Shown: in pieces, positions 571 to 48,250 of the stretch
Layout of the letters: every line of letters begins with the position of its first letter
Numbering within the stretch: the first letter of the stretch is position 1
Origin: Chiloscyllium plagiosum
Lineage: Eukaryota
Direction of reading: 5' to 3'
Assembly (NCBI RefSeq): GCF_004010195.1
Contig: NC_057757.1
Location: forward strand, 1,986,985-2,050,984
Length of the DNA stretch: 64,000 nt
Position numbers and translations under genes: made by a program
The notes under the pieces: generated by a model
What the model was told of the DNA's origin: nothing
What the model saw: only the letters and a program-made list of their open reading frames with translations
The model's database searches: none

Positions 571-843
571 CAAAGTTTGTGCGAAGATTTGTAGCTCAGG
601 TGCTCGTTGTTGTGGTTCTGTTCGCCGAACTGAGAATTTGTGTTGCAGACGTTTCGTCCCCTGTCTGGGTGACATCCTCAGTGCTTGGGAGCCTCCTGTG
701 AAGCGCTTCTGTGATCTTTCCTCCAGCATTTATAGTGGTTTATAAGCACTTCACAGGAGGCTCTCAAGCACTGAGGACGTCACCTACACAGGGGACGAAA
801 CGTCTGCAACACAAATTCCCAGCTCCACGAACAGAACCACAAC
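571..843. mobile_element. Palindromic Penelope-derived mini-element with two hammerhead motifs
   Basis: 13-bp TSD agttaacaccctt (558-570, 844-856). About 100-bp inverted arms at 608-708 and 744-844. Each arm has CTGAGGA-stem-GAAACGTC. Confidence 0.8.
768..807 (+). ncRNA. Minimal type I hammerhead ribozyme motif (mirror copy on minus strand at 645-684)
   Basis: gca-CTGAGGA-c-gtcacct(acac)aggggac-GAAA-CGTC-tgc: helix I gca/tgc, helix II gtcacct/aggggac, GUC cleavage triplet. Confidence 0.7.
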
Positions 844-1580
844 AGTTAACACCCTTTTCCTGATATTAGCAGCTATTTGGAATCAACAGAGGTAGTTTAA
901 GCAATGGGGACTTCAAATTAAACTGTAGATGCAAACCAACTTCTGGCCACTAGATGGCACATGCAAACCTGCACCCTGCTGAATGAAACACAAAACACTT
1001 TCCAGACACAGGCCACAGAATTAGTATTTACCAAAGCAGACAATTAAAAGCAATCCAGGTAAGCCCATGCAATGATTCCCCAGGAAGGGTAGCATTAGGT
1101 GAAAGACAGTCAATCCCAAATGCATGACATGCCACGTAGCTCAAAAGAAGCAAAGGCCAGACTGCAGTTTGCGCTGAGGGAGTTCTGATATTTCCCTGCC
1201 TCAATCTAAAATATTATGTGCCTCTTGCAACCTCAAACAACTTCTCTGATAAAAATGGCAAGACTGGAAAAAACACAGTCAGCCAGCTACTTGTTTTCTG
1301 TGCAACCAGGAAACACTGCAACATTGCAAACGGTGATTGCATGCAAAGCATGAGTATGACAACCGTGGCTTAGTGGGTAGCACTGCCTCTTGTTGGAGTC
1401 AGAAGGTCATAGATTCAAACCCCACTCCATCGGCTCTGGAGCCTAACCCACACCAACAAAGTGCAGAAATGAAGGAACGTTACATTTCTGTGTTTTGAAT
1501 AAGGCATTCAATGAAATTTAAGAGTCATCTCCAATATTAGATTTGGAAAATTCGATAAAGCTGACCAGAAGGGCTTAAAA

Positions 1581-1877
1581 CAGCACAGTGGCTCAGTGGT
1601 TAGCACTGCTGCCTCACAGCGCCAGGGATCCGGGTTCAATTCCCGCCTGTGTGGAGTTTGCACATTCTCCCTGTGTCTGCGTGGGTTCCTCCGGGTGCCT
1701 CCCACAGTCCAAAGATGTGCAGGTTAGGTGAATTGGCCATGCTGAATTGCCCGTAGTGTTAGGTGCATTAGTCAGGGGTGAATATAGGGGAATGGATCTG
1801 GGTGGGTTGCTCTTTGGAGGGTCGGTGTGGACTTGTTGGGCCGAAGAGCCTGTTTCCACACTGTAGGGAATCTAATC
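1581..1877 (+). mobile_element. HE1/V-SINE (tRNA-derived)
   Basis: A box tggctcagtgg, B box ggttcaattcc, V-domain tgtggagtttgcacattctcc...ctcccacagtccaaagatgtgcagg, CR1-like tail ending aatctaatc. Confidence 0.9.
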
Positions 1878-2007
1878 AAAAAAACAACCCCAGAGCAAAC
1901 AGAATATAGATGCTTACATGTAACTGAAACAAACAACAGGTTACTTAGGAATAGATTAAACACAATGCACCATCAAGCATGTCTTCACCATGTGACACTG
2001 AAAAAGG

Positions 2008-2078
2008 TTGAAACTTTATTGCTGGAACAGCACAGCAGGTCAGGCAGCATCCAGGGAACAGGAGATTCGACGTTTCGG
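2008..2078 (-). mobile_element. 71-bp Penelope 3'-terminal insertion
   Basis: Near-identical to the reverse complement of about 5447-5517. Perfect 12-bp TSD cactgaaaaagg (1996-2007, 2079-2090). Confidence 0.85.
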
Positions 2079-2799
2079 CACTGAAAAAGGGCCAACTCAG
2101 ACTGGTATGCAGTGGGAGAACTCCTGTAGGTGTGCACACAGCACCATCAACATACCAATTTCTGTTCTCACTCCATCTGCGACTTGTTGCATTCCTGCCA
2201 GATCTGCTGTCACAGATTGTCTGTCTTATACCACCCTCACACATCAACTGAAAATTGCCTGCAACTGCTATGGGGCATATACCATGCAACTATACTTAGG
2301 TCAACTCCTCTTTCTGCTGTCCTCCACTTTGCCTTCCAGGAGCGATCCTCCTAGCTTTCAGCTCTGATCGAATGGTTGAAACACTGATGTTGGCATTTCT
2401 GGATGCCAACTTAAGTCTTGTTTTTCCATTCTTGCAATTTTAAATCACTTTGCATTTGCTTTATGGGCTGTATATGGAATTTTTAGAATATATCTCAGCA
2501 TCCATATTCCAAAGATCTATTATTTTCTTCTATCAATCTCATTCTCCGCATTGCTGCCATAATACAGGAAGGTGGGTAGGACACAATCTTTCTTCCTCAT
2601 CACAAGTTTGTGTTTTATTGTTGTGAACACATCCTTCATCTTCACAAAATTACTTCTGGTGATCTTGATTTTTCTTCTCAATTCTCTTATCATTCCATAC
2701 CAAAATGCCTTACATTTACACAGAACCTTTTACAACCACAAGACAGAGTCATAGAAAAGTACAGCACAGAAATAGACCCTTCGGTCTAACTCATTACAC

Positions 2800-3597
2800 T
2801 ATGGGAAATAAAGAGCATGAAAGCATGGGAAGGGTTAAAGCATGAAGACCACTGGCGATCTGTTACAAGGGGTCTGTGGAATGCTACACGAGCCAAAAGA
2901 TCACGGTGGCAGGATGGGATAACAATAGTGGAATGCTCCTACACCAATGAGCAGAGTCAGACTGGGAGCTGAAAGGTTACTATGGCAGGCTGAGATAACA
3001 ATTAGTAAAGTCAGCCTCGCCTACTAAATATCATCGTGGCAGGTTGGAACAGGTCGTGACAATAAATATTTAGGAGATGATATTAAATATTTAATTAAGA
3101 GTTAGTAGAGTCAGCCTGCTTGAGACCCATGACAATAAATATCTAATCAGTAGATAGTGGAGTCAGCTTGGGACAGGAGACCATTTAGCTACCCCGTGGT
3201 AGACGGGGTAGCTAAATATCTAACCATGACAGGTTAGTCTGGGATGGAGGATCATTGTGGCAGAGGAGGCAGTAAAGTATCTAATCGTGACATTAGAATA
3301 ATATTACGTATAATGTAGGAAAAACCACAGTGGCAGAAGTAGAGAGATAATGGGAGCTAATATCATTGGTTTATTGGATAGCTGGAGTGCGGCAATTCTG
3401 ACTAGCACAGTTGGGCATGCTGATAAGCTAACAAAAACATGATTAAAAGAAGGTATAAAGAACCATGGACCCTGAGGTTCAGGGGCATTCAAGAATTTGC
3501 TTTCTGAGTGCCACAGTTTTTTGTTTGCAAATAAAAGACCTACTCCTTGAAGAACTCTCTGTGTCGCCTGGTGATTCTCTACATTTTCTCCACGACA
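2800..3597 (+). mobile_element. Probable solo LTR
   Basis: Internally repetitive U3-like region, TATA-like ggtataaag (~3452), AATAAA (~3530), ends ...ctccacgaCA. The 5' boundary is unclear. Confidence 0.5.
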
Positions 3598-3619
3598 ATA
3601 CTGACACGATATCCTAAAT

Positions 3620-3830
3620 CAGTCCCAAAGTGTTTTCCAGCCTTCGTTGGAATGTTTGCAAAACAGGAAATCCAGAAGCTAACTTTTGCACAGCAAGCTC
3701 CCACAATGTCTTAATGACCAACCTCTTTCTGTGATACTGGCAAAGGAATAAAATTAGCCAGGACACATCCCTGTTCATCTTTGCAATAGTGACCGGCAAT
3801 GATTTACTTCAAGAAAACAAATAGCACCAT
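3620..3830 (+). mobile_element. Deu-domain SINE (SacSINE1-like) fragment
   Basis: ttgcacagcaagctcccaca...taatgacca...attagccaggacac...cctgttcatctttgcaatagtg resembles the DeuSINE core. Similar copies near 51590-51935, 52550-52607, 54300-54640 and 57080-57375. Confidence 0.6.
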
Positions 3831-4334
3831 AAATTAACAGATGGTCCACAAGGAAGGATATTTAAAGTGAAGTTGTCAAGATGAGGGGGACAAGTAACGG
3901 CATAGACTGATGGGCCTAAAGAAGGAACATGATAGCATTGTGGCTTTTCTGTTTCACTGTGCCAAGGTCAGTTCAACCATGAACGATAATGCGAGGTATG
4001 GGAGTACTGCCAATTTCTAATATCCCTTGACAGCATTCCTCAGTACTTCAGCGGGAGTTTCAACCTGGATTACGTGCTCAAATTTACAAAGTGGAATTTG
4101 AAATAACAACCTTCGGATTGAGAGGCAAGAGTGATACCTGAATGCTTTTGAGGGCGGGGGGGGGGGGGGGTGGGGGTGGAGTTTGCAAACAACAAGAGCT
4201 GTCATATCCCTTGATTGCGACCCCAAAACAATGCATGGCTGGAAAAAAAAACGCAACACAGCCTTTTCTTAAAAGCAGCAAACAAGCCAAACGGCTTGCG
4301 TGACTAAATTTAATGCAAGAGGCACCAGCCCTAC

Positions 4335-4439
4335 CTTGCCAATCCGCGTCGGAGAAGGAGAGGGAGACAAGGGGAAAATATCCTCCCTCTGCAAAGTCAA
4401 AGTCTGGTCCTCCTGCTCAGCAGTCACCATCTGGTCACA
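4335..4439 (-). CDS. FAM122: FAM122/PABIR-family gene, internal coding exon (5th visible)
   Basis: tctcttttacag|...ggcaag|gtaggg. 105 nt, phase 0->0, CDQMVTAEQEDQTLTLQREDIFPLSPSPSPTRIGK (cf. FAM122A IDFIPVSPAPSPTRGIGK). Confidence 0.85.
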
Positions 4440-4780
4440 CTGTAAAAGAGACATCAGCACCAGGTAACCAACGTAAATATCACCCTCTGCCCTTTATGTT
4501 TCAGATAATACCCCGTAACCACCACAACAAATCACAGTCTAAGTTTACAATTCAACCAACACAGTCAATTGATAATGTGTCACAATTTTCATTCACCTTG
4601 AGATGTTGATAACTCATGGAACGAAGAGTAACATACTTTACAGTCCAACTTCCGACATGCCGCAGAACTAGCAACACAGGGCTCAAGTCAAGTCACCATT
4701 GTTTACCAGACCATGGGGCTGCTCTCTGATTAGATAGCTACCTCAGCTCAGAAAAGGGAAGAGCTTGAGAAGAATCCTTC

Positions 4781-5518
4781 CGACCCAACCTCCGCTCCCG
4801 GCACCTTCCCTTGCAACCGCAGGAGGTGCAACACTTGCGCCCACACCTCCCCCCTCACTTCTCTCCAAGGCCCCAAAGGAAACTTCCATATCCGCCACAG
4901 ATTCACCTGCACCTCCACCCACATCATCTACTGCATCCGCTGCAGCCGGTGTGGCCTCCTCTATATTGGGGAGACAGGCCGCCTACTTGCGGAGCAATTC
5001 AGAGAGCACCTCTGGGCCACCCGGACGAACCAACCCAACCAACCTGTAGCACAGCATTTCAACTCCCCCTCCCACTCCACCGAGGATATGCAGGTCATTG
5101 GACTCATCCACCGCCAAACCACAACAACCCGACGGTCGGAGGAGGAGCGTCTTATCTTCCAACTGGGAACCCTCCAACCACAGGGGATGAACTTGGACTT
5201 CACCAGTTTCTTCATCCCCCCTCCCCCCACCCTGTCTCAGCCGGATCCTTCCAGCCCGGCACCGCCTCCCTGACCTGCAGTCTTCTTCTTGACCTCTCCG
5301 CCTCCATCCTACTCCGACCTATCAACCTCACCTTGACCTCTTTCCACCTATCACATTTCCAACGCCCCTCCTCCAAGTCCCTCCTCCCTACCTTTTATCT
5401 TCTCCTGCTGAACACTCTCTGCTCATTCCTGAAGAAGGGCCTGTGCCCGAAACGTCGAATCTCCTGTTCCCTGGATGCTGCCTGACCTGCTGTGCTGTTC
5501 CAGCAATAAAGTTTCAAC
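4781..5518 (+). mobile_element. 5'-truncated Penelope-like retroelement with open GIY-YIG endonuclease frame and terminal hammerhead
   Basis: Uninterrupted frame (stop at 5273): ...FPCNRRRCNTC...FTCTSTHIIYCIRCSRCGLLYIGETGRLLAEQFREH...VAQHF...EERLIFQLGTLQPQGMN. 11-bp TSD aagaatccttc (4770-4780, 5519-5529). Confidence 0.92.
5425..5460 (+). ncRNA. Minimal type I hammerhead ribozyme motif in the Penelope 3' end
   Basis: attc-CTGAAGA-a-gggc(ctgt)gccc-GAAA-CGTC-gaat: perfect helix I attc/gaat and helix II gggc/gccc, predicted cleavage after C5456. Confidence 0.8.
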
Positions 5519-5744
5519 AAGAATCCTTCATGGTAAACCCCAGCCAGTGCGAGGCTTAAACCCACACTCTTGGCATCACACAGCTTCGCAAACGAACCGT
5601 AAAAGCAACGGAGCTAAACCGATCCCCAACACAGGGGTAATTCCCACAGACAGGCTGCTCACAGCTGGTCTGCCTGGAACCTGTTGCATTCAGTAAATAG
5701 GTTGCACTGGGCATTTTCTGCTAAAAGGATTAATTTACAAGAAC

Positions 5745-6165
5745 AGACCGGATAGACTTGAGCAATATCCCACCAGGCATCAGAGATTAACATGTGATCT
5801 AATAAAGGCATTTACGATAGTTAATGGACATGATTGAGTTGGCAGAAAGGTACTATTTCCCTTGGAGAAGGGAACACAGAACAAAGGTTGCAGAATCTTA
5901 ATTTTAAGAGCCAAACTGTTCTGGAGTGATGTCAGGAAGCCCCTTCTTCAAGCAAGGGGCAAGTGGAAATCCAGAATTCTCTCTTCCACTAAAAGCTGTG
6001 GGCCAATGAAACTTTCAAAATTGAGACAGATTTTTGTTTGGCATGGTGGATTAAGGGTTGCAGAGTTAAGGCGAGTGAACTTAGAATTAAGTTATGGATC
6101 AACCATAATCTAAGTGAATGGCGGGAGAGGCTGAGTGGAGTCCTCCTGTGCCTTCGTTCATGTCA
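5745..6165 (+). mobile_element. Degenerate CR1 LINE 3' end
   Basis: Remnants of DLIKAFTI...LFP...DVRKxFF...W and the CR1 3' UTR (gaatggcgggagaggctgag). Confidence 0.6.
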
Positions 6166-7042
6166 GTGGCCATCTGTAAAAGACTGTGGGAGTCTTGTAT
6201 TCTGCACTGGAGGTGGAAACATTTTGAAAACGAAAACACTCCATATTTTCCACATCATTGTAGCCAACTTTCCATTTCTGTCCTCGTGAGCCCGAGTTCG
6301 CTCTTGATATACACAAAATACCAGCTATCTTCCCGTTTCCTATTTCTCCCCCAGGCACGAAGAGGAAGTACACTGTATACACATGATTCACCCCCTGGAC
6401 AGGCCTTTGCTCCCAATGCTGGTGAAAAACAAAACAAGTTTACTGGAAATTGAGTGTCCTTTTACATTGAGACAATTTCCCCCAGAGTTTCCCAGATAAT
6501 ACAAGTTAAAACTTTGAGGCCACTATACCCACACAAGAACAGAAAGAATCTTCAATGTTGTTTATTAGTTGTCGAGTGCTAATGCTTGGTTTAGGTTACT
6601 TACAAAGGTGTTTTGTAAGTCTATTAAGAGCAAAAGGATAAATCAGAGAAGGAACAGGGCCAATGAAGGACCAAAGTGGCAATGCTTGCGTGAAGCCGGA
6701 AAACACAGATGAAGTTCTAACTGAGTACCTCACATCTGTGTTCAGTGTGAAGAAAGGTAATGTAGATGTAGTAATATAGGATTATGCTATTCTTGAACAA
6801 ATTAGCACTGAGAAGGATATGGTATCAGTGGTTTTGCAGTCTTAAAAGTGGATAAATCCCCAGACACAGAGGAGATGTATACCAGGCTGCTGTGGGAGGC
6901 AAAAAACGAAGTGCAGAGGTTCGGACATTAATTTTCAATTCTCTTTGGCTACAGGAAAGGTACCAGAGGACTGAAGGACAGTCAGTATGATACCATTACC
7001 CAAGAGAACTAAAGAACAGTTAATTGTCCTGTGGTTAACCCA

Positions 7043-7211
7043 GAGCTGAAAATGTGTTGCTGGAAAAGCGCAGCAGGTCAGGCAGCATCCAGGGAACAGG
7101 AGAATCGACGTTTCAGGCATAAGCCCTTCTTCAGGATGCTGCCTGACCTGCCGCGCTTTTCTAGCAACACATTTTCAGCTCTGATCTCCAGCATCTGCAG
7201 ACCTCACTTTC
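7043..7211. mobile_element. Palindromic Penelope-derived mini-element with intact hammerhead on minus strand (7103-7138)
   Basis: Inverted arms. Minus strand reads atc-CTGAAGA-agggc(ttat)gcct-GAAACGTC-gat. About 16-bp TSD tcctgtgg(t/c)taaccca (7027-7042, 7212-7227). Confidence 0.8.
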
Positions 7212-7588
7212 TCCTGTGGCTAACCCACCTAACCTGCATATCCCTGGACACTACAGGCAATTTAGCATGGACAATCAACCCAAACCTGCACACCTTTGGA
7301 CTGTGGGAAGAAATCAGAGCCCCTGGATGTGCGGGTCAGGTGAACTGCCCATAGTGTTAGGTGCATTAGTCAGAGGAAAATGGGTCTGGGTGGGTTACTC
7401 TTCAGAGGGTCGGTGTGGACTGGTTGAGCTGAAGGCCTGTTTCCACACTGTAGGGAATCTAATTCTAAAACCACACAGATGAAGGGAGAATATGCAAACT
7501 CCACACACAGTCGCCTAAGGCTGGAATTGAACCCGGGTCCCTGGCGCTGTGAGCCAGCAGTGCTAACTATTGAGCCACCGTGCCACAC
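7212..7588 (-). mobile_element. HE1/V-SINE with a plus-strand HE1 3' fragment (~7326-7468) nested inside
   Basis: Reverse-complement tRNA head at 7520-7588 and V-domain. The inner segment matches the 3' half of 1581-1877. Confidence 0.8.
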
Positions 7589-9111
7589 CAAAGAAGAGTG
7601 GTAGGAATAAACCAGGAAACTACATCAGAGGTAGGGAAGCTACTGGAGAAAGATTTGAATGACAAAATCTCTGCTTGCAAAGGCAAGGATTCATACCCAT
7701 GGCTTTGTAAGAGGAAATCATATCATAGTTTTGAAGAAGCGATTAGGTGTGTAGATGAAGGTAGTGCAATTGATGTAGTTCACATGGCCTTCATAGTTCA
7801 GGGCTTTGAAATGTTTTACGAGAGACTGGTTAAGAGCCTGTGGCATCCAGGGCAGTTTGGCCAAGTCAATCCAAAATTGGCTTTATAGCAGGAAGCAGAG
7901 GGTGGTGGCCGAAGGTTGGTTTAGTGATTGGAAGTCAGTGTCCAGTGGCATATTGCAGGGTTTGGTGCAGGGTCCCTTCTTGTTTCTACTATATGTTAAC
8001 AAGTTGAATGAAAATACAGAAGGCGTGATCATTAAGTCTGTAGATAATATGAAAAATAGTGAGGTAATAAACGGTGAGCACAAAAACTTTATAGTATTGG
8101 ATGGTGCAGACAAGCTGCTCAAATGAGCAGAATGATAGCAAGTGGTATTAAGTCGTGAGAAAAAGCATTAAGCAATCTATTTTGGGAGGACTAACAAGAC
8201 AAGGCTATCCATAATGTATGACAGGACCCCGAGAAGTACAGACGATCAAAGGGACCTTGGTGTCGATGTTATGAAGGCAGCAGGACAGGTAGATAAGATG
8301 GTGGCTTATGGGATACTTGCCTTTATTAGTTGAGGTAATGATTACAGAACAGGAAGGTCATGGAGCTGTACGAGACATTAGTTAGGCCACAGCTGGTGTA
8401 CTATGTGTGGTTCTGGTCACCATACGAGAGGAAGGATGTGATCGCACTAGACTGCATGCAGAAGAGATTTACTAAGATATTGCCCAAGCAGTAGTGATTT
8501 AGCTACAAAAAGGGATGTTCAATAGGCTGATGTTGTTTTCCTTCAAGCAGACAAGGATGATAGGGGACCTGAGTAAGGTATATAAAATTATGAAACGCAC
8601 ATTTGGAAATCTTTCCCCCTAGTAGAAGGATCCATAACCAGGGAAGTACATGATTTAAGGTTGGGGACAGGAGATTTAGAGGGGATTTGAGGAAAAATGT
8701 TTTCATCCGGGGAAACGTGTATCTGAGGAACATTTCTAGAACAATTTTGGATCCAATTTGCCATATTATCGTGGATCTCACAGGCTTTTACCTTTCTGAT
8801 TAGTCTCTCATGTCTCCTGGTCAAAAGCCTGTCAAGTCCATGTAAACTACATACTCTCATCTACAAACCTAGTCACTTGCCCATTTAGTAAAAATTTAAA
8901 TTTAAAATCTTAGTCGAATTTGTACAGACAGGAATCCTCACAACATTTTAATAGTATTTAAATGAACACATGTAATGTCATAGCATGTAAGGCTATAGGC
9001 CAAGTGCTGGAAAATGAGATTACAGCAGATAGGTGCTTGATGACTGCCACAGACATGATGGGCCCAAGTGCCATAAAACTCCATGGCAATGGCAATATGT
9101 AAAGTACTCAC

Positions 9112-12666: not shown

Positions 12667-12929
12667 CTGAAACGTAAAACAAGCAATTGCCTTTTACATC
12701 TGTGCTCAGGATTCAGCAATGATCTCAGCCACTCTTCCACAATTAGGTTGAGCCAACAACTGCTAATGATCTTGCACCTGAACTGCACTGCCCAACATTA
12801 TGCTTGGTCACACCCTTCCTGTTTGAGTGAATGCTGCCACTCCAATGTGCTGAACTAATCATATGGACCATCATGCCATCTCGGGTGAATTCTCAATGTG
12901 GTCTCCCCTACACTGGGGAGACAGGAAAA

Positions 12930-13557
12930 CGGATCTTCCTGCAAATCCAAATACACCACCTACTGTGTCCATTGCTCTTGATGTGATCTCCTCTACACTG
13001 GGGAGACAGGATGCTAACTTGTGGAACGTTTCAGGGAACACCTCTGGGACACATACCAAACAACCCCATCACCCTATGGCCAACCAATAATTAAAATGAG
13101 GAATCTTCTCAAATGATTAACAGAGTTGATTCGAAAGAAATCTTTGTCTCATTTCACTTTTGCAGAATATTAATGTTGAGAGTCGAGAGATCTTATTTAT
13201 TTAGTTATCAACTAACCCTTCCACTCCACCAAGGACACACAAGTCCTGGGCCTCTTCCACTGCCAAATCCAAGCCACCCAACACCTGGAGGAAGAATGCC
13301 TCGTCTACCGCCTTCAGACCCTGCAACCACACAGCATCAACGTCAACTTCACCAGTTTCCCCTTTCTCCCCCACCTCCCCCAACCTCAACACTGTCCTAT
13401 CTGTCCACCTTCCTTCCTATTTATCCCCCAGTTCTCCCCGCCCCCCTATACATTTCTGCTGAAGGGCTTTAGCCCAAAATGTAAATTCTCCTGCTCCTCG
13501 GATGCTGCCTGACTTGCTGTGCTGATCTCCAGCATCTGCAGTCCTCACTTTCTCCTG
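12930..13557 (+). mobile_element. Degenerate Penelope-like element 3' part (GIY-YIG remnant plus decayed hammerhead), interrupted ~13088-13215
   Basis: ctctacactggggagacagg (YxGETG) and RLQTLQPHSINVNFTSF. Ends with the same gatgctgcctgac...ctcactttctcct terminus as the other copies. Confidence 0.75.
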
Positions 13558-17152: not shown

Positions 17153-18537
17153 GAACAAAGAAACAAAGCAAATTTCCAGCCCAGGAACTGGCCCTTCGAC
17201 TCTCCAAGCCTGAGCCGATCCAAATGTACTGTCTAAACCTGTCGATCAATTCCTAACCATCTGTATCGCTCTACTCCCCATCTACTCATGCATTTATCCA
17301 GACGCATCTTAAATGAATCTACCGTGCCTGCCTTTACCACCTCTGCTGGCAACGCGTTACAAACGCCCACCACTCTGTGTGAAGTACTTGCCGCGTGTAT
17401 CCCCCCCCTTAAACTTTCCACCTCTCACCTTGAAAGCGTGACCTGTCGTTATTGAATCCTTCACCCTGAGAAAAAACTTGTCTGTATCCACCCTGTCAGT
17501 ACCCTTCATGATTTTATAAACCTCAATCAGGTCCCCCCTCAATCTCCTTTTTTCTAATGAAAATAAACCAAACCTACTCAACTTTCTTCATTGCTAGCAC
17601 CATCCCCTCCAGGCAACATCCTCGTAAACCTTCCCTGCACCCCCTCCAATGCGTCCACATCCTTTTGGTAATGAGGTGAACAGAACTGTACACAGTATTC
17701 TAAATGCAGCCAAACGAATGTCTTGTACAATGTTAACATGACTTGCCAGCTCTTGTACTCAATACCCCGTCCAATGAATGCAAGCATACTATATGCCTTC
17801 TTGACCACTCTATCCACCTTTGCAGCAACCTTCAGGGTACAATGGACCTGCACTCCCAGATCTCTCTGCCCAGCAACTTTTCACAAGGCTCTTCCGTTCA
17901 TTGTATAATTCGCTCTAGAATTAGTCTTGCCTAAATGCATCACCTTTTCCGCCCAACTCTCCAGTCTATCTATATCCTCTTGTGTTCTCTGACAGTCCCT
18001 TATGCTTTCTGCTACTCCACCAATCTTCGTGTCATCTGCAAACTTGCTCATCATATCAACAATGCTCTCTTCCAGATCATTTATGTATATTAAAAACAAC
18101 AGTGGCCCCAACACTGACCCCTGTGGAACATCACTGGTCATCTTTCTCCATTTCGAGAAACTCTCTTCAACTACTAATCTGAGTCCTGCTGTTCAACCAG
18201 TTCCTTATCCACCGAGCTAAACACCCTGCACACCATATTACTTCACTTTCTCTATTAGTCTACCATGGAGTGGCCCCAACACTGACCCCTGTGGAACATC
18301 ACTGGTCACTTTCTCCATTTCGAGAAACTCTCTTCAACTACTACTCTGAGTCCTGCTGTTCAACCAGTTCCTTATCCACCGAGCTAAACACCCTGCACAC
18401 CATATTACTTCACTTTCTCTATTAGTCTACCATGGGGAACCTTATCAAACACCTTACTGAAGTGCATATATATGACATCAACAGCCCTTCCTTCATCTAT
18501 CAACTTGGTCACTTCCTCGAAGAACTCTATTAAGTTG
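17153..18537 (-). mobile_element. Relatively young CR1 LINE (RT to 3' tail) inserted in the Gypsy gag
   Basis: VPQGSVLGPLLFLIYINDL...SKFADDTK, LEYCVQFCSPHYQKD, LFSLEKRRLRGDLIEVYKIM. The host gag frame rejoins across it (KMADE|YKIVNKSKP). Confidence 0.92.
18101..18435. repeat. Tandem duplication, 168/167 bp x2, within the CR1
   Basis: 18101-18268 and 18269-18435 differ by about one substitution and one indel. Confidence 0.9.
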
Positions 18538-21514: not shown

Positions 21515-21960
21515 AGGTGATGGCCTAGTTGCATTATCACTGGATGGTTAATCCAGAGACTAGATTGGAGTGGTGCTGGAAAAGCACAGCAGGTCAGGCT
21601 GCATCCGAGGAGCAGGAAAATCGTTTCGGGCAAAAGCCCTTCATCAGGTTAATCCAGAGACCCAGGTAATATTCTGGGGACCCAGATTCAAATCCTGTCA
21701 TAGCAGATGATGGAATCTGAATTCAACAAAAACCTGGAATTAAGAGTCTAATGATGATCATTGTTGATTGTTGGAAAAGTTGGTTCACTAATGTCCTGCA
21801 GGGAAGGAAACTGAATGTGACTCCAGACTGACAGTAATGTTACTGACTTTAACTGTCCTGACACCCTAATTCCATGAATGAATAAAAAATAATATCTACA
21901 CTATCTACACACAGGAATTCGGGATGGGCAATAAATGCCTGCTTAAACCACAAAACCCAT
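21515..21960 (+). mobile_element. Second tRNA-derived shark SINE family (ggcctagt...ggggacccagattcaaatcc...gggatgggcaataaatgc)
   Basis: A/B-box-like head, conserved body ggttcactaatgtcct...gggaaggaaactg. Other copies at ~34010-34390(+), 34920-35220(-), 55975-56155(+) and 60120-60475(+). Confidence 0.7.
21561..21646 (-). mobile_element. 86-bp Penelope-derived hammerhead mini-insertion inside the SINE
   Basis: Perfect 15-bp TSD ggttaatccagagac (21546-21560, 21647-21661). Minus strand reads CTGATGA-agggc(tttt)gccc-GAAACG with the cleavage triplet deleted. Confidence 0.85.
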
Positions 21961-28282: not shown

Positions 28283-28782
28283 NNNNNNNNNNNNNNNNNN
28301 NNNNNNNNNNNNNNNNNNNNNNNNNNNNNNNNNNNNNNNNNNNNNNNNNNNNNNNNNNNNNNNNNNNNNNNNNNNNNNNNNNNNNNNNNNNNNNNNNNNN
28401 NNNNNNNNNNNNNNNNNNNNNNNNNNNNNNNNNNNNNNNNNNNNNNNNNNNNNNNNNNNNNNNNNNNNNNNNNNNNNNNNNNNNNNNNNNNNNNNNNNNN
28501 NNNNNNNNNNNNNNNNNNNNNNNNNNNNNNNNNNNNNNNNNNNNNNNNNNNNNNNNNNNNNNNNNNNNNNNNNNNNNNNNNNNNNNNNNNNNNNNNNNNN
28601 NNNNNNNNNNNNNNNNNNNNNNNNNNNNNNNNNNNNNNNNNNNNNNNNNNNNNNNNNNNNNNNNNNNNNNNNNNNNNNNNNNNNNNNNNNNNNNNNNNNN
28701 NNNNNNNNNNNNNNNNNNNNNNNNNNNNNNNNNNNNNNNNNNNNNNNNNNNNNNNNNNNNNNNNNNNNNNNNNNNNNNNNNN
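28283..28782. other. Assembly gap (exactly 500 N; true size unknown)
   Basis: Run of N of round length. Confidence 0.99.
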
Positions 28783-29021: not shown

Positions 29022-29217
29022 TTGGGAGTGTGTTGCTGGAAAAGCACAGCAGGGTCAGGCAGCATCTGAGGAGCAGGAGAATCCACGTTTCGGGCATAAG
29101 CCCTTCATCAGGATGAAGGGATCCAGCCCAATACGTCGATTTTCCTGCTTCTCGGATGCTACCTGACCTGCTGTGCTTTTCCAGCAACACACTCTCAACT
29201 CTGAAACCTCACTGTCT
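29022..29217. mobile_element. Palindromic Penelope-derived mini-element, inverted at the hammerhead
   Basis: Inverted arms meet at cccttcatcagg|atgaaggg. About 14-bp TSD ccca(g/c)catttattg (29008-29021, 29218-29231). Confidence 0.8.
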
Positions 29218-32228: not shown

Positions 32229-32356
32229 CCTGATGAAGGCTTTTGCCCGAAACGTCGATTTTGCTGCTCCTCGGATGCTGCCTGAACTGCTGTGCTCTTC
32301 CAGCACCACTGATCCACAATCTGGTTTCCAGCATCTGCAGTCATTGTTTTTACCTT
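32229..32356 (+). mobile_element. Penelope-derived terminal fragment starting at the hammerhead core
   Basis: CTGATGA-aggc(tttt)gccc-GAAACGTC-gatt followed by the family terminus gatgctgcctgaactgctgtgc...cagcatctgcag. Confidence 0.8.
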
Positions 32357-33020: not shown

Positions 33021-33034
33021 GGAGAGATAGGCTT

Positions 33035-36335: not shown

Positions 36336-36339
36336 CTGG

Positions 36340-37749: not shown

Positions 37750-37882
37750 AACAAAAACAGAAACTGCTGGAGAAACTCAGCAGGTCTGGCAGCACCTGGT
37801 GGAGAGAGAAAGCAGAGTTAATGTTTCGAGACCAGTTTTGAAGAAGAATTCAGATCTTCAGCATCCGCAGTTCTTGGTTTCA
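37750..37882. mobile_element. Older Penelope-derived palindromic mini-element (family also at ~39135-39265 and 46272-46488)
   Basis: gaaactgctggagaaactcagcaggtctggcagca...gagttaatgtttcg arm plus inverted cagcatccgcagttctt terminus. Confidence 0.6.
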
Positions 37883-39599
37883 TTTTAGAGAGAATGTGAA
37901 GATGAAGCCTGTGTTGTTAGGCCTCATCTCTCCCCCCCCAAAATCCTGACTGAGCTCAAATACAGAGGCAGAGTTAGGATCACACAGATAAAGCAGCCGA
38001 ACAAGATACCAAAGAAAGGAACTGGCGAGATTGATAGAAAGTCTGTTTTTTCTCTTGATGTGTAGGGGAGTCCAGAAACATGAAAATAGACTGATGGGCG
38101 TGAATAACAGGAAGTTCTTCTTCATGTACTGTGGAGTTGAAAGCTAGATCATTTGTCCCAAGATTAGTCATCTGGTCTGGAAGGTGGGGAAGGATCCAAT
38201 TGAAAATTTCTAAATTGCATTGAATCGATTTTTATTTGGAAAGGGGATTAAGGTAGATGAAGTGAACTATTCTGGAGTATCTTACTGAACGTTGCAACGG
38301 GCTCAGGAGACTGGTTCTATGTTTACATTAAGGTTTTTTAAATTCAATCATACAGAATGGCCCAAATAAGTAGTTACAGTATTTACTGGGAAAATGGAAG
38401 GGGGAACCAGGTCGTGAATACATAACACTTGGAGGCCCATACAATATATTGGTGTCAAATGTAAAAATGGCTGCTGATTTTTTAATATTGAGGGTAATAC
38501 AAATAAAAATAAATAAGTATTACTAGACAAATATATATTTTGGACTGAGATTTTTGTTCATTCATGGGATAGGGGTGTCACCAGCTGAACCCAGCATTTA
38601 TCACCAGTCCATAGTTGTCCCCTGAGAAAGTGGTGATGAGCTGTCTTCTCTGTGGTATAGTGACACCCACACAGTGCAGTTAAGGAGGGAATTCCATTGA
38701 CCCGATGACACTAAAGAAATGGCAATATATTTCCAAATCTGGATGGTGAGTGGCTCAGATGGGAACTTTGAGGGAGTGATATTCCCATATATCTGCTTTC
38801 CTTCTCCTTCCAGATGGTAGAGGCCATGGGTTTCGAAGGTGCTTTCAAAGTCTGTGTTGTGGATATGCCAGTTCAGGTTTTATACAAAGCATTGATGGGG
38901 ATGAATCTTATTTTCCCTCATTGCATCAAAGCTGGCTAACAAATGGTCACATCATTGTGCACTGTAGCATCTGAATGCGTGAAGATGGTTTACAGTGTGT
39001 TGTGCGATTGCTGCATAGATATTGCCAACTCTTGTTGCAATGCATTGTAGGAGATTTGTCACATGATCTCCCACCACCTACGCCCGCACTCCTGCCATTG
39101 GTCACCCAGCCTGCCAATCAAACATTGAACTTTGGCAGAAATTGCTGGAAAAACTCAGCAGGGTTTCAACCTCAGGCAGCAGTGACCCTTCTTTGGGACT
39201 GAAGAAGCTTTCTTCAATTTCTGTTTTAGTTTCAGAATTCCAGCGTCTGTAGTCCTTTGTTTTATTTGAGGCATTGAAATTGGTTGAACAAATCTTGACC
39301 CTCAGCCAAAAAGCCCTTTCTCCACATGAGAAAAGCACAATCCTTTAACTCCCCTGTGATTTTCCTTCTGTCTTAACTTCCTGGTAACTCTATGGTCAAT
39401 GCAGATAGCAAAGCATCCAGAGAGGGAGACGAGAAGGACTTTTTTTCACATGGCATCTTGTAGCGATATGCCTAAAAGGGCGGTGGGAGTAGTGGAATTT
39501 AGTAGGAACATTCAAAAGGCGAATTGTGTAAACACCATTATAACCAGTCCCCACCAATAATCCCCAATTCGTGACTGTCATGGGTAGCAGTATGATCTG

Positions 39600-40470: not shown

Positions 40471-42159
40471 GAATGATCTGACTCTTCTGCTTTATTCACC
40501 TGCCTCCTCAACTGGTTGCAACAAAGTTAATGCAAAAAGGATCCCCTCCCTTGTGGATACATTTCTCGTGGACCAAATGAATTTCTGTTTTAAAAGGAAC
40601 CAATTAAACACCGTTACAACCAGTCCCCGCCAATGATCCCCAACTCGTGACAGTCCTGGGTAGCAATATGATCCAAGGGGAGTGCTACTGAACAAAGAGA
40701 CCTTGCAGTCGCAGGGTGGTAAAGAAGGCATTTGGTACTTTTTGAGCTAAAGAAAGAGTGAGCTTATTAGTAACTAAATGCAAGAAGACCTAATAACATA
40801 ATACACAGGCATTCAGGTCAGAAATGAGAAGGGAGTCCAAGAAAACATAGAAGACAGACTGATTGGTATCTGAGTTATTCATGAAGGGTAAATAATGGAA
40901 CATTGTGGCTGTAAAGTTGGGTGATATCAGTAATGTTCACATTAACAGTTGAGCAGTTCAATTTTGAGACTCTTAGCTTAACGAGTTAGTTGAGATTCTT
41001 TTATTCCTTTCAACAGTGACTGGTTTGCAGTTCTGAGAATGAATGCATGAATGGATAGTTTCATATCCTTTTACCTGCAATGCAGGGGTGTTTAATGGCT
41101 GTCATCAAACTGTGTTCTTCACAGGACATTAGTCCACATTCCCACATCATAGAATCAAAGACCATGCAAACAGACCCTTCAGTCCAACCAGTCCATGCCG
41201 AACATAATTCCAAACTAAACTAGTCCCACCTGCTTGCTCCTGGCCCATCTCCCTCCAAACCTTTCTTATTCATGTACTCATCCAAATGTCTTTTAAACAT
41301 TGTAATTGCACCAGCCACCACTTTCTCAGGAAGCTCATTCCACATGCGAACAACCCTCTGTGTAAAACAATTTTCACCTCATATCTTTTTAAAATCTCTA
41401 AACCAGTAGTTACAGATGGTTATTAGCCCCCTTTTAGTACATTCTTGGAAGGATAAACCAGAAAGTCTTTGACTCATGTCCAGGGATCTGAGGTGTAACT
41501 GAAAGGAGAGGTTTTTTTCCCTGCTGAGAGGAGACTATTAGATTGCCTCAAACTTCTGCTTTGTGAAGAATGTTTTGTTGGCTCCTACACTCCATGACAT
41601 TCCAGGGGTTTTCACAGAGTATCAGCAGTTCGTGAATTCCATGCGATAATGTTACCTAACGGCCAGGCTTGGTTTGCAGTTTTTGCTTAAAATAAGCACA
41701 TGTTTTGACTAAAACTTCATTAGGCCCATGAGTCATTTAAGGTTCCGATCCATCGTCATGACACTACTTGGAAGTGAAAAATGCGCAGGGTTTGAGCGGG
41801 AAAGCTTGCAGGACTAACTGGAAAGCTCATTCACTGGGCTGTCACAGATAATATGGGCTGAATGGCCTCCTCCTGTGTTGTTTGACCCTGTGATTCTGGG
41901 AAGTTAAATAAGCCCAGCAAAGTTGGCATAAGCACTCTCAGCAGAATCAGGAACAAGAAGGCTTTGCACTGGAGTTTGAGGTGTCAAAATGTTTGTAAAA
42001 GGGACTGGAAAGGCCTTTTTGAGAGAATGAGGGAAATGTAATGATGACAGCCTGGAACATGCACTGTCTAACTTCCAGATAATTCTACCTTGCTTGGGCC
42101 AGCTGCTGCTTGCCTGACTCTCTAGTCCAGCCAACTGTGTGACTTGTATACATATTTAA

Positions 42160-43650
42160 GATCATAAGACATAGGAGTGGAAGTAAAGCCATTTGGCCCA
42201 TTGAGTCCACTCCGCCATTCAATCACGGCTGATGAGCATTTCAGCACCACTTACCCTCACTCTCCCCGTATCTCTTAATTCCTTGCGAGATTAAGAACCT
42301 ATCAATCTCTGCCTTCAAGACATTTAATGTCCTGGCCTCCATTGCGTTCCGTGGCAATGAATTCCACAGGCCCACCACACTGGCTGAAGAAATGTCTCCT
42401 CATTTCCATCTTAAATTGACCCCCCTCTAATTCTAAGCCTGTGCCCACAGGTCTCAGCCTCCTTGTTTAAGTTTCCTTGTTTAAGAAGGGACATGGTAGG
42501 ATTGGAGTCAGTTCAGAAAAGGTTCATTTCGTGATTCCTGGGCCAAAGGGGCTTGTCTTATGAGGGAAGGTTGAATAGGTTGAGTCTAAATTCTCTCGCG
42601 TTTTAAAAAATGAGGACTTACTGAAAACGTTGTTTTGCAGGTATAGCAGGTAATTAAGAAGGCAAATGGAATATTGTCCTTCATTGCTAGAGGGATGGAG
42701 TTTAAAAACAGGGAGGTTATGCTGCAGCTGTATATCGTGCTGGTGAGGCCACACCTGGAGTATTGTGTACAGTTTTGGTCTCCTTACTTGAGAAAGGATG
42801 TCCTGGTACTGGAGGGGGTGCAGAGGAGGTTCACTGAGTTGATTTCGGAGTTGAGAGGGTTGGCTTATGAGGAGAGATTAAGTAGTCTGGGACTGTATTC
42901 ATTGGAAGTTAGAAGAATGAGGGGAATCTTACAGGAACATATAAAATTATGAAGGGAATAGATAAGATAGAAGCAGGGAGGTTGTTTCTGCTGGTGGGTG
43001 AAACTAGGTCCTGGGGGCATAGCCTCAAAATAAGGGGGAGCAGATTTTGGACTGAGTTGAGGAGGAACTTCTTCACCCAGAGGGTTGTGAATCTGTGGAA
43101 TTCCCTGCCCAGGGAAGCAGTTGAGGCTACCCCATTGAATGTTTTTTTTTAAGGCAAAGATAGATTTTTGAACAGTAAAGGAATTAAGGATTAGGGTGAG
43201 CAGGCAGGTAAGTGGAGTGGAGTCCATGAAAAATCAGCCATGATCTTATTGAATGGCGGAGGAGACTTGAGGGACCAGACGGCCTACTCCTGCTCCTAGT
43301 TTTAATGTTCTTATGTACGGTCCAGAGAAGGGCTTGACAATGTAAATGCTGAGTAGACACTTCCTTCCATGGGTGAATCTAGTATTGGGGGCCAGAAATT
43401 CAGCAAAAGTAATCTTCCGATGAAGGTGAACAGGTATTTCCCCTCTCAGAGAGTTGTGAATCTTTGGCATTCAAAATCCCAAAGAGCAAGAGAGGCTGAG
43501 GCATTGAAAAGATCCAAGGATGAGGGAATCAAGAAGGGGGACAGGCAGGAAAATCGAGTTGATCCATTGGATCAGCCATGATGTTTCTGAATCATGGAGC
43601 AGGCTCGAGGGGCCTGAATTGCCCGATCCTGCTCCTGTTTCTTGAGTTGT
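42160..43650. mobile_element. Cluster of CR1 3' fragments (42160-42470 minus; 42640-43315 and 43320-43650 plus)
   Basis: LVRPHLEYCVQFWSPYLRKD...RRNFFTQRVVNLWNSLP and CR1 3' UTRs. Confidence 0.85.
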
Positions 43651-44305
43651 TAAGAGCAACAGTGTCCACATCTGCTAAATGACAATTATAAGTAGCTCAT
43701 CAGACAGTATGCAAAAAGATTACTGAGAACTTTACAAGGGCTATTAAAGGTCATATTGAAATCCTATGGGAATGTGGCACCTGAATGGAATACAAAACTG
43801 GAGATTTATTTACATACATTTACATTTAAATCCACAACGTGCATGCAACACACAGCTACACCCTCTGTGGGGATGGGATAAACACACTCCCCACTCAAGA
43901 GGCCATTCACTACTTACTAGTTACTGAGCTAGTCAGTCAGTGGTCAGACCTAACCCAGAGATTATGACTTTGATACCACCTTGAACAACTGGAGCAATCA
44001 GTTAAGAAATCTAGACATAAAGAATTATTTGGTTTTATCAAGTTATTTAACTGATGCTGTTTAGGAATAGACACTTGCATGCTTACTTGGTGTATAACTG
44101 ATGTCAACATAGAATCCGTACAGTATGGAAGCAGGCCATTCAGCCCATCAAACCCCTCTGAAAGCATCTCAACCAGACCCACCTCCCTACCATCTCCCTG
44201 TAGCCCTGCATTTCCCATGGCTAACCCACCTAGCCTGCACATCCCTGGACACTACGGAACAATCTAGCATGACCAATCCAACCTCAGCTGCACATCATTG
44301 GACTG

Positions 44306-44828
44306 ATGTGGAAGTGCCGGTGTTGGACTGGAGTGGACAAGGTCACACAACACCAGTTATAGTTCAACAGGTTTGTGTGAAATCACAAGCTTTCTGAGCG
44401 CTGCCCCTTCATCAGGTAAAGTGAAGAAAAGCATTCAGGCACAGAATTTATAGGCAGAGAGATCAAAAGATCACACAAATGATGTGAATGGGAATGTCGA
44501 ATAAGTCTCTGCAGGTAATCAAAAGTGTCAGCAGCTGAATAGCAAGTGAAGATGATGAGCTATAATTCAATTAATTGAGGCAGAGAGATAGTTACTAAAA
44601 CTTGAAACTATTTTGATGCTGGAGACAAACCATATTGCTGGAATAACATGATAGGTGTATGAGTTGCTTGCTGAGGGTTTAGCAAAAGTAACAACTAATC
44701 CAAAACTGTACAAACTATTGAAGGGAGAGAGGTCATATCAAGGTGATGGTGTCAAAACAGGACAGTAGGAAGATTTTACAGATATAGAACAATATTGTGG
44801 GGTTACACATAGCGCGACTTGAACCCAA
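44306..44828 (-). mobile_element. 3' end of another Penelope-like family with hammerhead motif (44384-44418)
   Basis: Minus strand begins (L)GFKSRYV* (PLE-like C-terminus), later reads ac-CTGATGA-aggggc(agc)gctca-GAAAGCTT-gt. Flanked by an imperfect acatcatt..gga(c/t)tg duplication. Confidence 0.6.
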
Positions 44829-44896
44829 CATCATTTTTGGATTGTGGGAGGAAACCGGAGCACCTGGAGAAAATGCTTGCAGACACAGGGAGAATT

Positions 44897-45200
44897 GGGG
44901 CAGCACGGTGGCTCAGTGGTTAGTACTGCTGTCTAACAGCACCAGGGTCCCAGGTTTGATTCCAGCCTGTCTGTGTGGAGTTTGCACATTCTCCCCGTGT
45001 CTGCGTGGGTTTCCTCCGGGTGCTCCGGTTTCCTCCCACAGTCCAAAGTCAGGTGAATCGGCCACGCTAAATTGCCCATTGTGCTAGGTGCATTAGTCAG
45101 AGGGAAATGGGTCTGGGTGGGTTGCTCTTCAGAGGGTCGGTGTGGACTTGTTGAGTCGAAGGACCTGTTTCCACACTGTAGGGAATCTAATCTAATCTAA
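44897..45200 (+). mobile_element. HE1/V-SINE, near full length, nested
   Basis: ggggcagcacggtggctcagtgg head, V-domain, (aatct)n tail. Confidence 0.9.
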
Positions 45201-46271
45201 TGTGCGAACTCCACACAGACAATCGCCAGACAGTGGAATTGAACCCGGGTCCCTTTTGCTGGGAGGGAGCAGTACTTAGCACTGAGCCACCAACAGAGGG
45301 CACTATCAACTATAAGTGGCTCAGGAAAAAGGACTACCGATAGGGCATCTAAAGACAGGCAATAATTTGCCAACGATGCCTGTAACCAGAAAATCAGAGG
45401 GAAAAATATTTGATTTCTCCAGCAATTTCTTTGATTTGTAATGGGTTTTTAACAAAAATAACAACAGGAGTAGGTCATTTGGCCCTTGATAAGATCATCC
45501 TAGGTCTCGACTCAACCTTTCCGCACTATCTGCATCTCCCTCAGCATCCGAAACTCTCTTGATATTTGTCTCTGAAGTACAAAACGGCTGAACACTCACA
45601 ACGCTCCAGAGTGGAGAGCAGCAGGATTTACGTCCCTTGGGTGAAGATATTTCTACTCATTTCACTTCTAAGTCCTGAGCTGCGATCCCTAGCTAGGAGA
45701 AGCAGCCTCTCAACATCTACCCTGTCAATCCCTGTTGTACATTTGTCAGACAAAGTCACTCTTTTAAATGAATTTTCTGCCCCGTTCCACTTCCCAGAAA
45801 GGATTTCCAGTAGAAGGATAGGGCCATCAAGCTGCCTTACTGTTCAATTAAACCATGGCTGATTATCTACCTCAACAGCACTTTCCCGCATCGTCCCCAT
45901 TTGTGTACTTACTGTTTAGAAATCCATTTATTTCTATCTTGAACCTGCTCAAAGATTAATCCTTTGTCGACCGATGAGATTGAGAATCCTTAAAATTAAG
46001 CACCCCCTGGGCAGAGAAATAAGGGGTCTGTCCCTTATTCTACAACTACGTCTCTGGGTTTTAGACACAGTCACACTGCCTGTAAGTTTTAACAGGATCA
46101 CCTCTAACACTCTGAAACTTGAGACAATACAGGCCAAGTTTCCTCAACCTCTCTTCAAGGCAATCTACCTACACAGTACTCCCACTGATGCAAGACATCA
46201 GACTCTTACATATAGAGACCAAACTATATGTAAGCTATTCCCTGGTGAGTGGCTCCTTGCGATAATGAAAT

Positions 46272-46488
46272 CAATAAAAACTGAAAGAGCTACGGATGCT
46301 GTAAATCAGAAACAAAAACGGAGATTGCTGGAAAAGCTCAGCACGTCTGACAGCAATTGTGGAGAGAAATCAGAGTTAATGTTTTGGGTCTTTTCAGGTT
46401 CTGAGGAAGGGTCACTCGACCTAAAATATCGTCTCTGATTTCTCTCCACAGATGCTACCAGTCCTGCTGAGCTTTTTCAACAATTTCT
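46272..46488. mobile_element. Older palindromic Penelope-derived mini-element with decayed hammerhead
   Basis: Inverted arms gagattgctggaaaagctcagca...ggagagaaatcagag / ctctgatttctctccaca...gctgagcttttt. Core gtt-CTGAGGA-agggtc(actc)gacc is degenerate at GAAA. Confidence 0.65.
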
Positions 46489-47289
46489 TAGGTGGATTCA
46501 ATGTACTATGAAATCTTTGTTTAACAAGTTGCCTTCTTACCTCCTCTTTTACATGGTTTTGGGATCTGAAACCAAACTGACAGAATCTTGTGTGCCTGTG
46601 AAGGTATTAAGTACGTGAATCTTCCAGCATTGTGGGAAGTAGGAAAGCTAACTGGTGAGCTGTATGCAGTTCCTTGTCAAAAGGCTATCTTACCCTTTAA
46701 CAATCCCCCCTGCCCCCAAATCCTTTCATTAGCATGTCATTATTTGCACATCAATGGATCAGTGAACCCACCATGGAAAGTTAAGCAAACTTTGTTTTAA
46801 CTAGCAACTTATCAAACTGTACTCTTGATAAAACAACAATATCTATTATATATATGTGTACCTCAAATACCGCAATCTCACACAATGTCCAAGTGTTTAT
46901 GCTGTAACTGAAGTACAGCAGTGCATTACAATTCTGTTACTTACTGTGTGTGTTTAACATTGATTTTAGGAAGTGTGTTGATATTTCTAGTTAGAGTTTT
47001 TGAGGGTTGTTGATGTCTGAAGCTTTGCTTGGTCAGGATTTATTGCAGATATGCGTACCTTTGATTGTCTGGAGTATTAGGTCAATCGGTACACTCTTAT
47101 TCCCATTGGTGCCAGTTAATAAAAAGTTTGCGGTCTAAAGACACAATTGTTATTAATAACTATCAACTGATCTCTGTGGTCCAGACACTGACAGTTACAA
47201 ACATAGAGTCCTACTCCCTCTGACAATGGATTCTTATTGGACAACTAAAAGAAATCAAATATTCAATTAACCTTTCTTTTACAGTCAGA

Positions 47290-48250
47290 GTTTACACTCT
47301 TTGGTCCAACTCGTCCATGCTGAACAGGTATCCTAAATTAATCCAGTCCCATTTGCCAGAATTTGGCCTATTTCCCGCTCCCTATTCATTCACCCATCCA
47401 GATGCCTTTTAAATGTTGTAATTGTACCAGCCTCATCTTCGTCTGGCAGCTCATTCCATACACATACCACCCTCTGCATGAAAAAGTTGCCCCTTAGGTC
47501 TCTTTTGAATCTTTCCCCTCTCAACTTAAACTTATGCCCTCTAGTTTTGGACCGTCCACCCTGGGAAAAAGACCTTGGCTATTCACCCTTCCCATGCCCC
47601 TCATGATTTTATAAACTTCGATAAGGTTACCCCTCAGCCTCCTATGCACTAGGGAAAAAAAGCCCCAGCCTATTCAGCCTTTCCCTATAGCTCAAATCCT
47701 CCAAACCTGGCAACATCCTTGTCAATCATTTCTAAAACCTTTCAATTTTCTCAGCATCTTCCCAAAATCAGGGAGACCAGAATTGAACACAGTGTTCCAA
47801 AAGTGGCCTAACCAATGTCCTGTACAGCTGCAACATGACCTCCCAACTCCTATACTCAATGAACTGACCAATAAAGGCAAGCATACCAAATACTATCTTC
47901 ACCACTCTGTTTACCTGCAACTCCACTTTCAAAGAGCTATGAACCTGCACTCCAAGGTCTCTTTGTTCGGCTACACTCCCCAGGAGAAAGTAAGGTCTGC
48001 AGATGCTGGAGATTAGAGCTGGAAATGTGTTGCTGGAAAAGCGCAGCAGGTCAGGCAGCATCCAGGAAACAGGAGAATCGACGTTTCGAAGAAGGGCTTA
48101 TGCCTGAAACGTCGATTCTCCTGTTCCCTGGATGCTGCCTGACCTGCTGCGCTTTTCCAGCAACACATTTCCAGCTACACTCCCCAGGACCCTACCATTA
48201 AGCGTGTAAGTCCTATCCTGATTGGCCTCACCAAAATGCAGTACCTCACA
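47290..48250 (-). mobile_element. CR1 LINE 3' part, interrupted at 47986-48173
   Basis: EQRDLGVQVHSSLKV...LYRTLVRPLLEHCVQFWSP and 3' UTR. Confidence 0.88.
47986..48173. mobile_element. Young palindromic Penelope-derived mini-element, inverted at the hammerhead
   Basis: Perfect 16-bp TSD gctacactccccagga (47970-47985, 48174-48189). Near-perfect arms meet at gacgtttc|gaagaagggcttatgcctgaaacgtc. Confidence 0.88.

Follow-up and report, generated by a model that had tools for sequence, protein, structure and literature searches.

Short insertions with hammerhead ribozyme motifs are scattered over the window, a 64,000-nucleotide stretch of the Chiloscyllium plagiosum genome (NCBI RefSeq assembly GCF_004010195.1, contig NC_057757.1, positions 1,986,985 to 2,050,984 of the forward strand). 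By sequence, they are not a separate family but 3′ terminal repeats (pseudo-long terminal repeats [pLTRs]), some carrying a 35-nt tail, that belong to protein-coding Penelope-like elements (PLEs). They have two fixed 3′ ends, target site duplications (TSDs), a sharp peak of 5′ junctions at hammerhead helix I, sequence in common with long coding copies and, in inverted pairs, one tailed and one untailed arm. Most of the short copies (stubs) of three of the four families found (A, C, and D) are read here, with a probability of about 0.6, as run-off cDNAs that end at the predicted capped 5′ end of the PLE RNA, the first base of helix I. A more specific proposal, to which we give slightly less than even odds, is that they represent a PLE "strong-stop"-like product, in which the transcript would start on the first base of the hammerhead and one dimeric enzyme would prime each DNA end from a different one of two fixed sites that lie 35 nt apart.

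How PLEs transpose is poorly understood, and statistics at the level of single bases become possible in a genome that holds young copies by the tens of thousands. If the strong-stop proposal is true, run-off copies in such numbers chart both the start site and two-ended integration at base resolution, and the proposal accounts for inverted pLTRs, the one-sided tail and possibly the regeneration of pLTR tandems. The 5′ stop at helix I and the single tail per inverted pair also yield direct predictions for an existing in vitro system. Neither a 5′ junction peak at the hammerhead nor a strong-stop product was reported for PLEs in the literature searched, which covered few subscription journals.

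Relationship to protein-coding Penelope-like elements

PLE-derived sequence is present at all 13 sites listed by an earlier sequence-only reading of the window, which had rightly proposed a PLE origin, at least three or four families and a density of about one site per 5 kb. The sites sort into family A (2008, 4781, 7043, 12930, 21561, 29022, 32229, and 47986), family B (571), family C (37750, 39135, and 46272), and family D (44306). Throughout the genome, exact matches number at least 18,829 for the 3′ end of young family A, 6,175 for family B, 4,054 for family C, and 3,387 for family D, all lower bounds obtained from exact 18- to 28-mers. Families B, C, and D were characterized by their pLTR, hammerhead, fixed 3′ ends, and upstream extension, and family A was followed into coding sequence.

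The link to coding sequence is clearest at 4781 to 5518 (plus strand), a young, 5′-truncated, 738-bp family A copy with an 11-bp TSD (4770 to 4780 and 5519 to 5529). It consists of a CX4CxxC linker and GIY-YIG coding end (4782 to 5273), followed by the 3′ untranslated region and the pLTR. The GIY-YIG match to Pfam (E value of 0.004) is below the curated cutoff, as is the RVT_1 match (E value of 2.9e-5) at another locus (L212), where the reverse transcriptase (RT) continues in frame into the start of the endonuclease (EN). Upstream of the family A GIY-YIG lies the RT, and beyond the tail lies the start of the open reading frame (ORF), which in its 5′ region (L211) carries N-terminal, 12-residue, proline-rich tandem repeats before the RT. 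The 29 best genomic relatives of 4781 to 5518, besides the copy itself, are 98 to 99% identical to it, end at either of two positions 35 nt apart, have TSDs, and extend upstream to variable extents.

Family A thus fits EN-containing (EN+) PLEs in the order of RT and C-terminal GIY-YIG in one ORF (no complete ORF was seen) and in its pLTR with a hammerhead, optional tail, variable 5′ truncation, and TSD. Its inverted loci (32 of 73 sampled) and pLTR-tail-ORF junctions correspond to the inverted and partial-tandem arrangements of EN+ PLEs. In the accounts of EN+ PLE insertions by Craig et al. 2021 (PMC8557442) and Arkhipova et al. 2013 (PMC3846280), 5′ truncation, partial tandems, inverted pLTRs, TSDs, and solo pLTRs are all described. 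The former also defines Neptune and Nematis by a CX2-5CxxC linker between RT and EN, a feature shared by the translation from 4782 onward. Unlike canonical EN+ PLEs, stubs dominate here and begin at one narrow site.

Over the shared 129 nt of family A, 61 of 91 short arms and 41 of 63 long arms are identical to the reference. No private recurrent variant separates the two classes (none occurs more than three times), a comparison of low power given the near invariance of the young subfamily. Since short and long arms are equally close to one reference, the stubs and the coding copies appear to have their masters in common.

5′ junctions at helix I and one-sided tails

The family A sample comprises the first exact 3′-end matches on one contig (73 loci and 96 arms of the young subfamily), counted after removal of arms with upstream N or near locus edges; arms were extended without gaps, which misplaced at least one of them (L053). 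More than half of the arms (55/96) start 88 to 97 nt from the first of the two 3′ ends (end 1), while 27 are shorter and 14 are longer; the same range holds 24 of the 43 noninverted arms. Position 94 from end 1 is the first base of helix I, and the predicted cut is at 62. Among the 69 arms that reach the helix I edge, 55 stop within 10 nt (binomial P = 3e-48, set against a rate of 0.8% per base that was estimated after the fact). Starts at the same edge were counted by eye in 19 of 30 listed arms in family C and 19 of 30 in family D. Family B has no peak, its lengths upstream of the cut ranging from 56 to >550 nt (30 arms, 3 of them limited by N), with an anchor that hides truncations within the 3′ half of the ribozyme. 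The 5′ peak in families A, C, and D is a nonrandom, testable signature of these elements.

The edge is well exemplified by the intact minimal type I hammerhead at 5425 to 5460 (plus strand) in the copy at 4781. Helix I is formed by 5425 to 5428 with 5457 to 5460, the core spans 5429 to 5435, helix II spans 5437 to 5448, and the predicted cut follows 5456. Base 5425 is the position of the 5′ junction peak and the putative +1.

Several features at the edge are consistent with a transcription start. Initiators follow the consensus YYANWYY, and the A of such a motif coincides with the start of helix I in families A and C. A TATA-like box lies 29 to 30 nt upstream of the edge in long family C copies and about 32 nt upstream of a candidate +1 in long family D copies. 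Where the base preceding the edge A differs from the template C, it is G in 25 of 45 family A cases and 25 of 46 family C cases, about twice the expected 28% (P = 9e-5 and 1.4e-4, respectively), according to hand counts of 100 listed matches per family in which some rows are two arms of one insertion. This excess, though moderate, fits copying of a cap. Furthermore, two loci (L377 and L385) in which the pLTR and tail run on into the ORF region (for 337 and 498 nt) have their starts at −92 and −95, and 7 of the 46 gap-free tail-to-ORF loci start at 92 to 95.

A tail is present on exactly one arm in 26 of the 27 family A pairs with two complete arms, a count that leaves out 5 inverted loci with an incomplete arm and in which the tail/tail pair (L034) is doubtful and two loci (L043 and L088) have a common junction. 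From single copies (26 tailed and 15 untailed), about 46% would be expected (P = 2e-7 against 0.5). The 30- to 40-bp tail is often at one end only in the qualitative descriptions of PMC8557442 and PMC3846280, so that the count (26/27) is what is added here. Such a proportion points to the use of separate start sites at the two ends of the target cut. PMC3846280 attributes inverted junctions to self-priming on an antisense template. Separately, an identical inverted 5′ junction occurs at four loci (L160, L351, L359, and L380), apparently through remobilization of a rearranged unit that bears a hairpin.

The biochemistry of Poseidon PAc of Anolis (Frangieh et al. 2024, PMC11167929) offers a basis for a mechanism. 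As described there, the RT starts internally at two sites that define the tail, both strands are cut and extended in vitro by a predicted dimer, and hammerhead cleavage is not needed for insertion. In the C. plagiosum elements, PLE RNA would start at the initiator in the upstream pLTR, where PMC2377424 and PMC8557442 also place the transcription start. Because the PLE enzyme starts inside the RNA at two sites (PMC11167929), here corresponding to two fixed 3′ start sites 35 nt apart, priming within the first pLTR, which may be frequent, would give run-off products of 94 or 129 nt. Inverted pairs would arise when the two nicks of a staggered cut are primed from different start sites and the ends of the resulting cDNAs are joined through microhomology. 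Lacking the upstream TATA region, most stubs would go no further. Family B yields ordinary variable truncations. In its accessible parts, the Poseidon PAc study reports no genomic 5′ junction peak, and family B, which is similar in layout, has none here.

A number of observations weigh against the run-off explanation. In family A, the TATA-like stretch, at about −32, is degenerate, and family B has a TATA-like box yet no peak. The template C is retained before the edge A in 55 (family A) and 54 (family C) of 100 listed matches, GGCC fillers at junctions misfit a cap model, and only one of three G cases resolved by a TSD without filler is clearly untemplated (L299), the other two lying inside the TSD. 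Among the 46 gap-free tail-to-ORF loci, 11 reach past −100, 5 of them with one common junction. RNA reads (1,038 reads from one poly(A) single-cell run, mostly of diverged copies) map to both strands and show no peak at the beginning, end, or joint, and a second run gave no matching reads. In addition, walking outward from family A reached the RT and the ORF start but no complete full-length copy, and the sample covers one contig and a young subfamily, with the two arms of an insertion not being independent.

Two other candidate signals were discarded. A cluster of starts 40 to 54 nt from end 1 in tandem-derived copies consists mostly of gap edges (N lies directly upstream at 39 of 85 loci). 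A stop at a splice or lariat branch point at the edge A is not supported by any common upstream exon at the junctions, and the next AG lies too close for a branch point.

Barrier, mini-element, and other explanations

The main competing explanation is that the RNA extends further upstream and that the peak arises where the RT stops, or a 5′ exonuclease halts, at a folded or protein-bound hammerhead. It agrees with the position of the peak, which in three families coincides with the edge of helix I, and with the passage of many tail-to-ORF loci beyond that edge. The PLE protein can also alter hammerhead folding or cleavage, according to PMC11167929. Nevertheless, the predicted fold is weak (−7.1 kcal/mol; z = −0.8, not significant), the peak is absent from family B although its hammerhead is intact, and the spacing of the TATA-like boxes and the G excess would be left unaccounted for. 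In addition, an RT would normally be expected to stall on meeting the 3′ side of a structure. We therefore regard such a barrier as unlikely, though deserving serious consideration.

Markedly less probable is the view of the sequence-only reading that the stubs form a separate, self-propagating population of nonautonomous ribozyme mini-elements (retrozyme-like or resembling miniature inverted-repeat transposable elements [MITEs]) with their own transcription, moved in trans. The nearly fixed unit length would fit, as would the recurrence of rearranged lineages: among 85 tail-to-ORF loci, the junction of a 224-bp tandem unit occurs at 9 and a second, deletion junction at 16, and one junction was found 4 times among 100 listed family A matches. 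However, the short arms carry no private variants relative to long, ORF-linked coding arms, the 5′ ends are spread over 10 nt with unique flanks, and the tail-to-ORF class amounts to 387 matches versus 18,829. Instead of tandems, the window sites hold solo and inverted copies, many of them with part of the ribozyme lost, and only 3 of the 13 have an intact motif. The palindromes consist of unequal head-to-head arms with variable junctions and 7- to 16-bp TSDs, which does not correspond to a MITE, whose terminal inverted repeats are mobilized by a DNA transposase and whose short TSD is of fixed length.

Non-LTR retrozymes are, by definition, tandem repeats of which two or more units contain a complete hammerhead (PMC7229834; bioRxiv 10.64898/2026.07.22.740005). 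They are also expressed as unit RNAs in linear and circular form. No tandem array with a complete hammerhead in two or more consecutive units was found in the window, and the absence of private variants, a test of low power, gives no sign of a lineage independent of an autonomous master. As described in the latter preprint (Li, Clavereau, and Pollet 2026), animal retrozymes derive from pLTRs and occur in the one cartilaginous fish sampled; PLE pLTR origin, a type I hammerhead, and dispersed monomers are also seen here. What fits that definition is a rare lineage elsewhere in the genome, whose 224-bp tandem unit comprises the pLTR, the tail, and the ORF start, with one hammerhead per unit (L154 to L157, L179, L334, L342, L351, L371, and L383). 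On its sequence, this lineage is a minor retrozyme-like derivative of family A. True nonautonomous derivatives, as judged from such units, are present in the genome but rare and are not represented among the 13 window sites.

Published work also places the solo and paired insertions among known elements. PMC4209133, in the portion available, describes dimer-dependent, minimal hammerheads of several families, mostly solo or paired on opposite strands and tied to truncated PLEs. As here, these are of minimal type I with a bulged base before helix II and a palindromic helix III, and a genome holds several families and thousands of mostly single motifs, with opposite-strand pairs 100 to 700 bp apart. 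Unlike the present analysis, that portion names no shark and does not map 5′ junction positions. Solo, opposite-strand, dimer-dependent PLE hammerheads are thus already published, and the claim of a new population of ribozyme mini-elements is mostly anticipated by the literature and partly wrong. Its premise of mobilization by PLE machinery stands.

Purely random 5′ truncation, which the sequence-only reading had set against its own view, describes family B and the long family A copies but is contradicted in families A, C, and D by the peak at the helix I edge, and is highly improbable as a general explanation. Hammerhead cleavage as the main route to stub 5′ ends is just as implausible, the peak lying about 32 nt upstream of the predicted cut and only 6 of 96 family A arms starting near it (58 to 66). 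Cleavage probably does occur occasionally: among the best 30 U6 loci, 2 (L393 and L410) have a fusion, just 3′ of the U6 match, to the base that immediately follows the predicted cut in the older family A subfamily, which is indirect support. Two others of the 30 (L405 and L409) have an internal join to PLE coding-like sequence. A short interspersed element (SINE)-like repeat directly follows many U6 copies (L391, L398, L399, L403, L408, and L411 to L416) and is common in the window too, e.g., at 1581 to 1880.

Hammerheads and insertion sites in the window

A strict minimal-hammerhead descriptor finds four intact motifs in 3 of the 13 insertions (681, minus; 771, plus; 5429, plus; and 7134, minus), compared with a chance expectation of 0.07 per window and a maximum of 1 in 60 first-order Markov simulations. 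They have the CUGAnGA and GAAA boxes, an NUH triplet, helices I and II, and a palindromic helix III, as expected of the minimal type I form named by the sequence-only reading. The hammerhead, intact or decayed, that it assigned to every site is decayed or cut off at the other 10. The CTGAnGA box is missing at 2008 and in both arms at 47986 because these insertions begin inside the ribozyme, 21561 lacks the cleavage triplet, and 29022 has G at position 17. An Rfam scan, which had been suggested as a genome-wide check, returned no hammerhead family for the window at E values of ≤10; its microRNA matches are the palindromes.

Helix I pairs ATTC with GAAT in young family A, GCA with TGC in family B, AGTT with AACT in family C, and CAC with GTG in family D, with one mismatch in older family A copies. 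Helix II also differs between families with pairing retained, so that the anticipated covariation is borne out. The palindrome of helix III is ACGT in families A, B, and C and AGCT in family D. The proposed contrast of ACGT with AAGCTT holds for the former, while AAGCTT fits only an unlisted copy with its core at 56864. Since helix III is identical in families A, B, and C, it cannot enforce family-specific dimers among them, as had been suggested, and could separate only family D from the rest. Helix I, which in a double hammerhead should likewise pair between molecules, is a better candidate for such specificity. The copy at 56864 (56760 to 56900, minus strand) probably belongs to a fifth, decayed hammerhead family with an AAGCTT-like helix III.

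The ranges given for size, TSDs, and symmetry apply to part of the sites. Ten of the 13 are about 70 to 275 bp long, and longer 5′-truncated copies occur at 4781, 12930 (about 660 bp), and 44306 (at least 150 bp). TSDs within the reported 11 to 16 bp are exact at five sites (571, 2008, 4781, 21561, and 47986) and have one mismatch at two (7043 and 29022); no convincing match of ≥10 bp was found at the remaining six. Clear head-to-head palindromes account for five sites (571, 7043, 29022, 46272, and 47986).

The family B inverted pair (571 to 843) consists of a tailed minus arm (741 to 571) and an untailed plus arm (744 to 842) within a 13-bp TSD (558 to 570 and 844 to 856), and both hammerhead cores, at 681 (minus) and 771 (plus), are intact. 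In family A, the young, untailed, 71-bp stub at 2008 to 2078 (minus) has a 12-bp TSD (1996 to 2007 and 2079 to 2090), its 5′ end lying inside helix II. The inverted pair at 7043 to 7211 joins a minus arm that runs from the hammerhead edge to a short, tailed plus arm and is flanked by a 16-bp TSD with one mismatch (7027 and 7212). The pair at 47986 to 48173 has its tail on the minus arm, the 5′ ends of both arms inside the ribozyme, and a 16-bp TSD (47970 and 48174).

Older family A copies include a stub at 21561 to 21646 (minus), which begins at the core and has a 15-bp TSD (21546 and 21647); an inverted pair at 29022 to 29217, whose arms meet at the hammerhead core, with a 14-bp TSD containing one mismatch (29008 and 29218); and a tailed stub at 32229 to 32352 (plus; approximate 3′ end), which begins one base before the core and for which a search found no TSD. 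The old, family A-related, 5′-truncated copy at 12896 to 13557 (plus; approximate ends) retains GIY-YIG remnants, a tail, and a decayed hammerhead near 13456.

Family C is represented by a decayed copy at 37750 to 37885 (approximate right end), of which the minus arm (37826 to 37750) matches the family and at which no TSD was found when looked for; by a heavily decayed and probably inverted copy at 39135 to 39270 (approximate ends); and by an inverted pair at 46273 to 46500 (approximate ends), with a tail on the minus arm and a plus arm that begins just before the decayed core. The family D copy at 44304 to 44453 (minus; provisional 5′ end), with AGCT in helix III, reaches upstream of the core beyond a TATA-like box.

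Other features of the window include a 53-bp unit repeated 7.4 times at 50848 to 51240, related to the body of the SINE-like repeat, and a tandem duplicate of a 167-bp unit at 18101 to 18435 (98% identity). A stretch of 500 N at 28283 to 28782 is probably an assembly gap. The sequence at about 2861 to 3582, with a TGT start, an ACA end, internal repeats, and AATAAA, resembles a solo LTR by eye.

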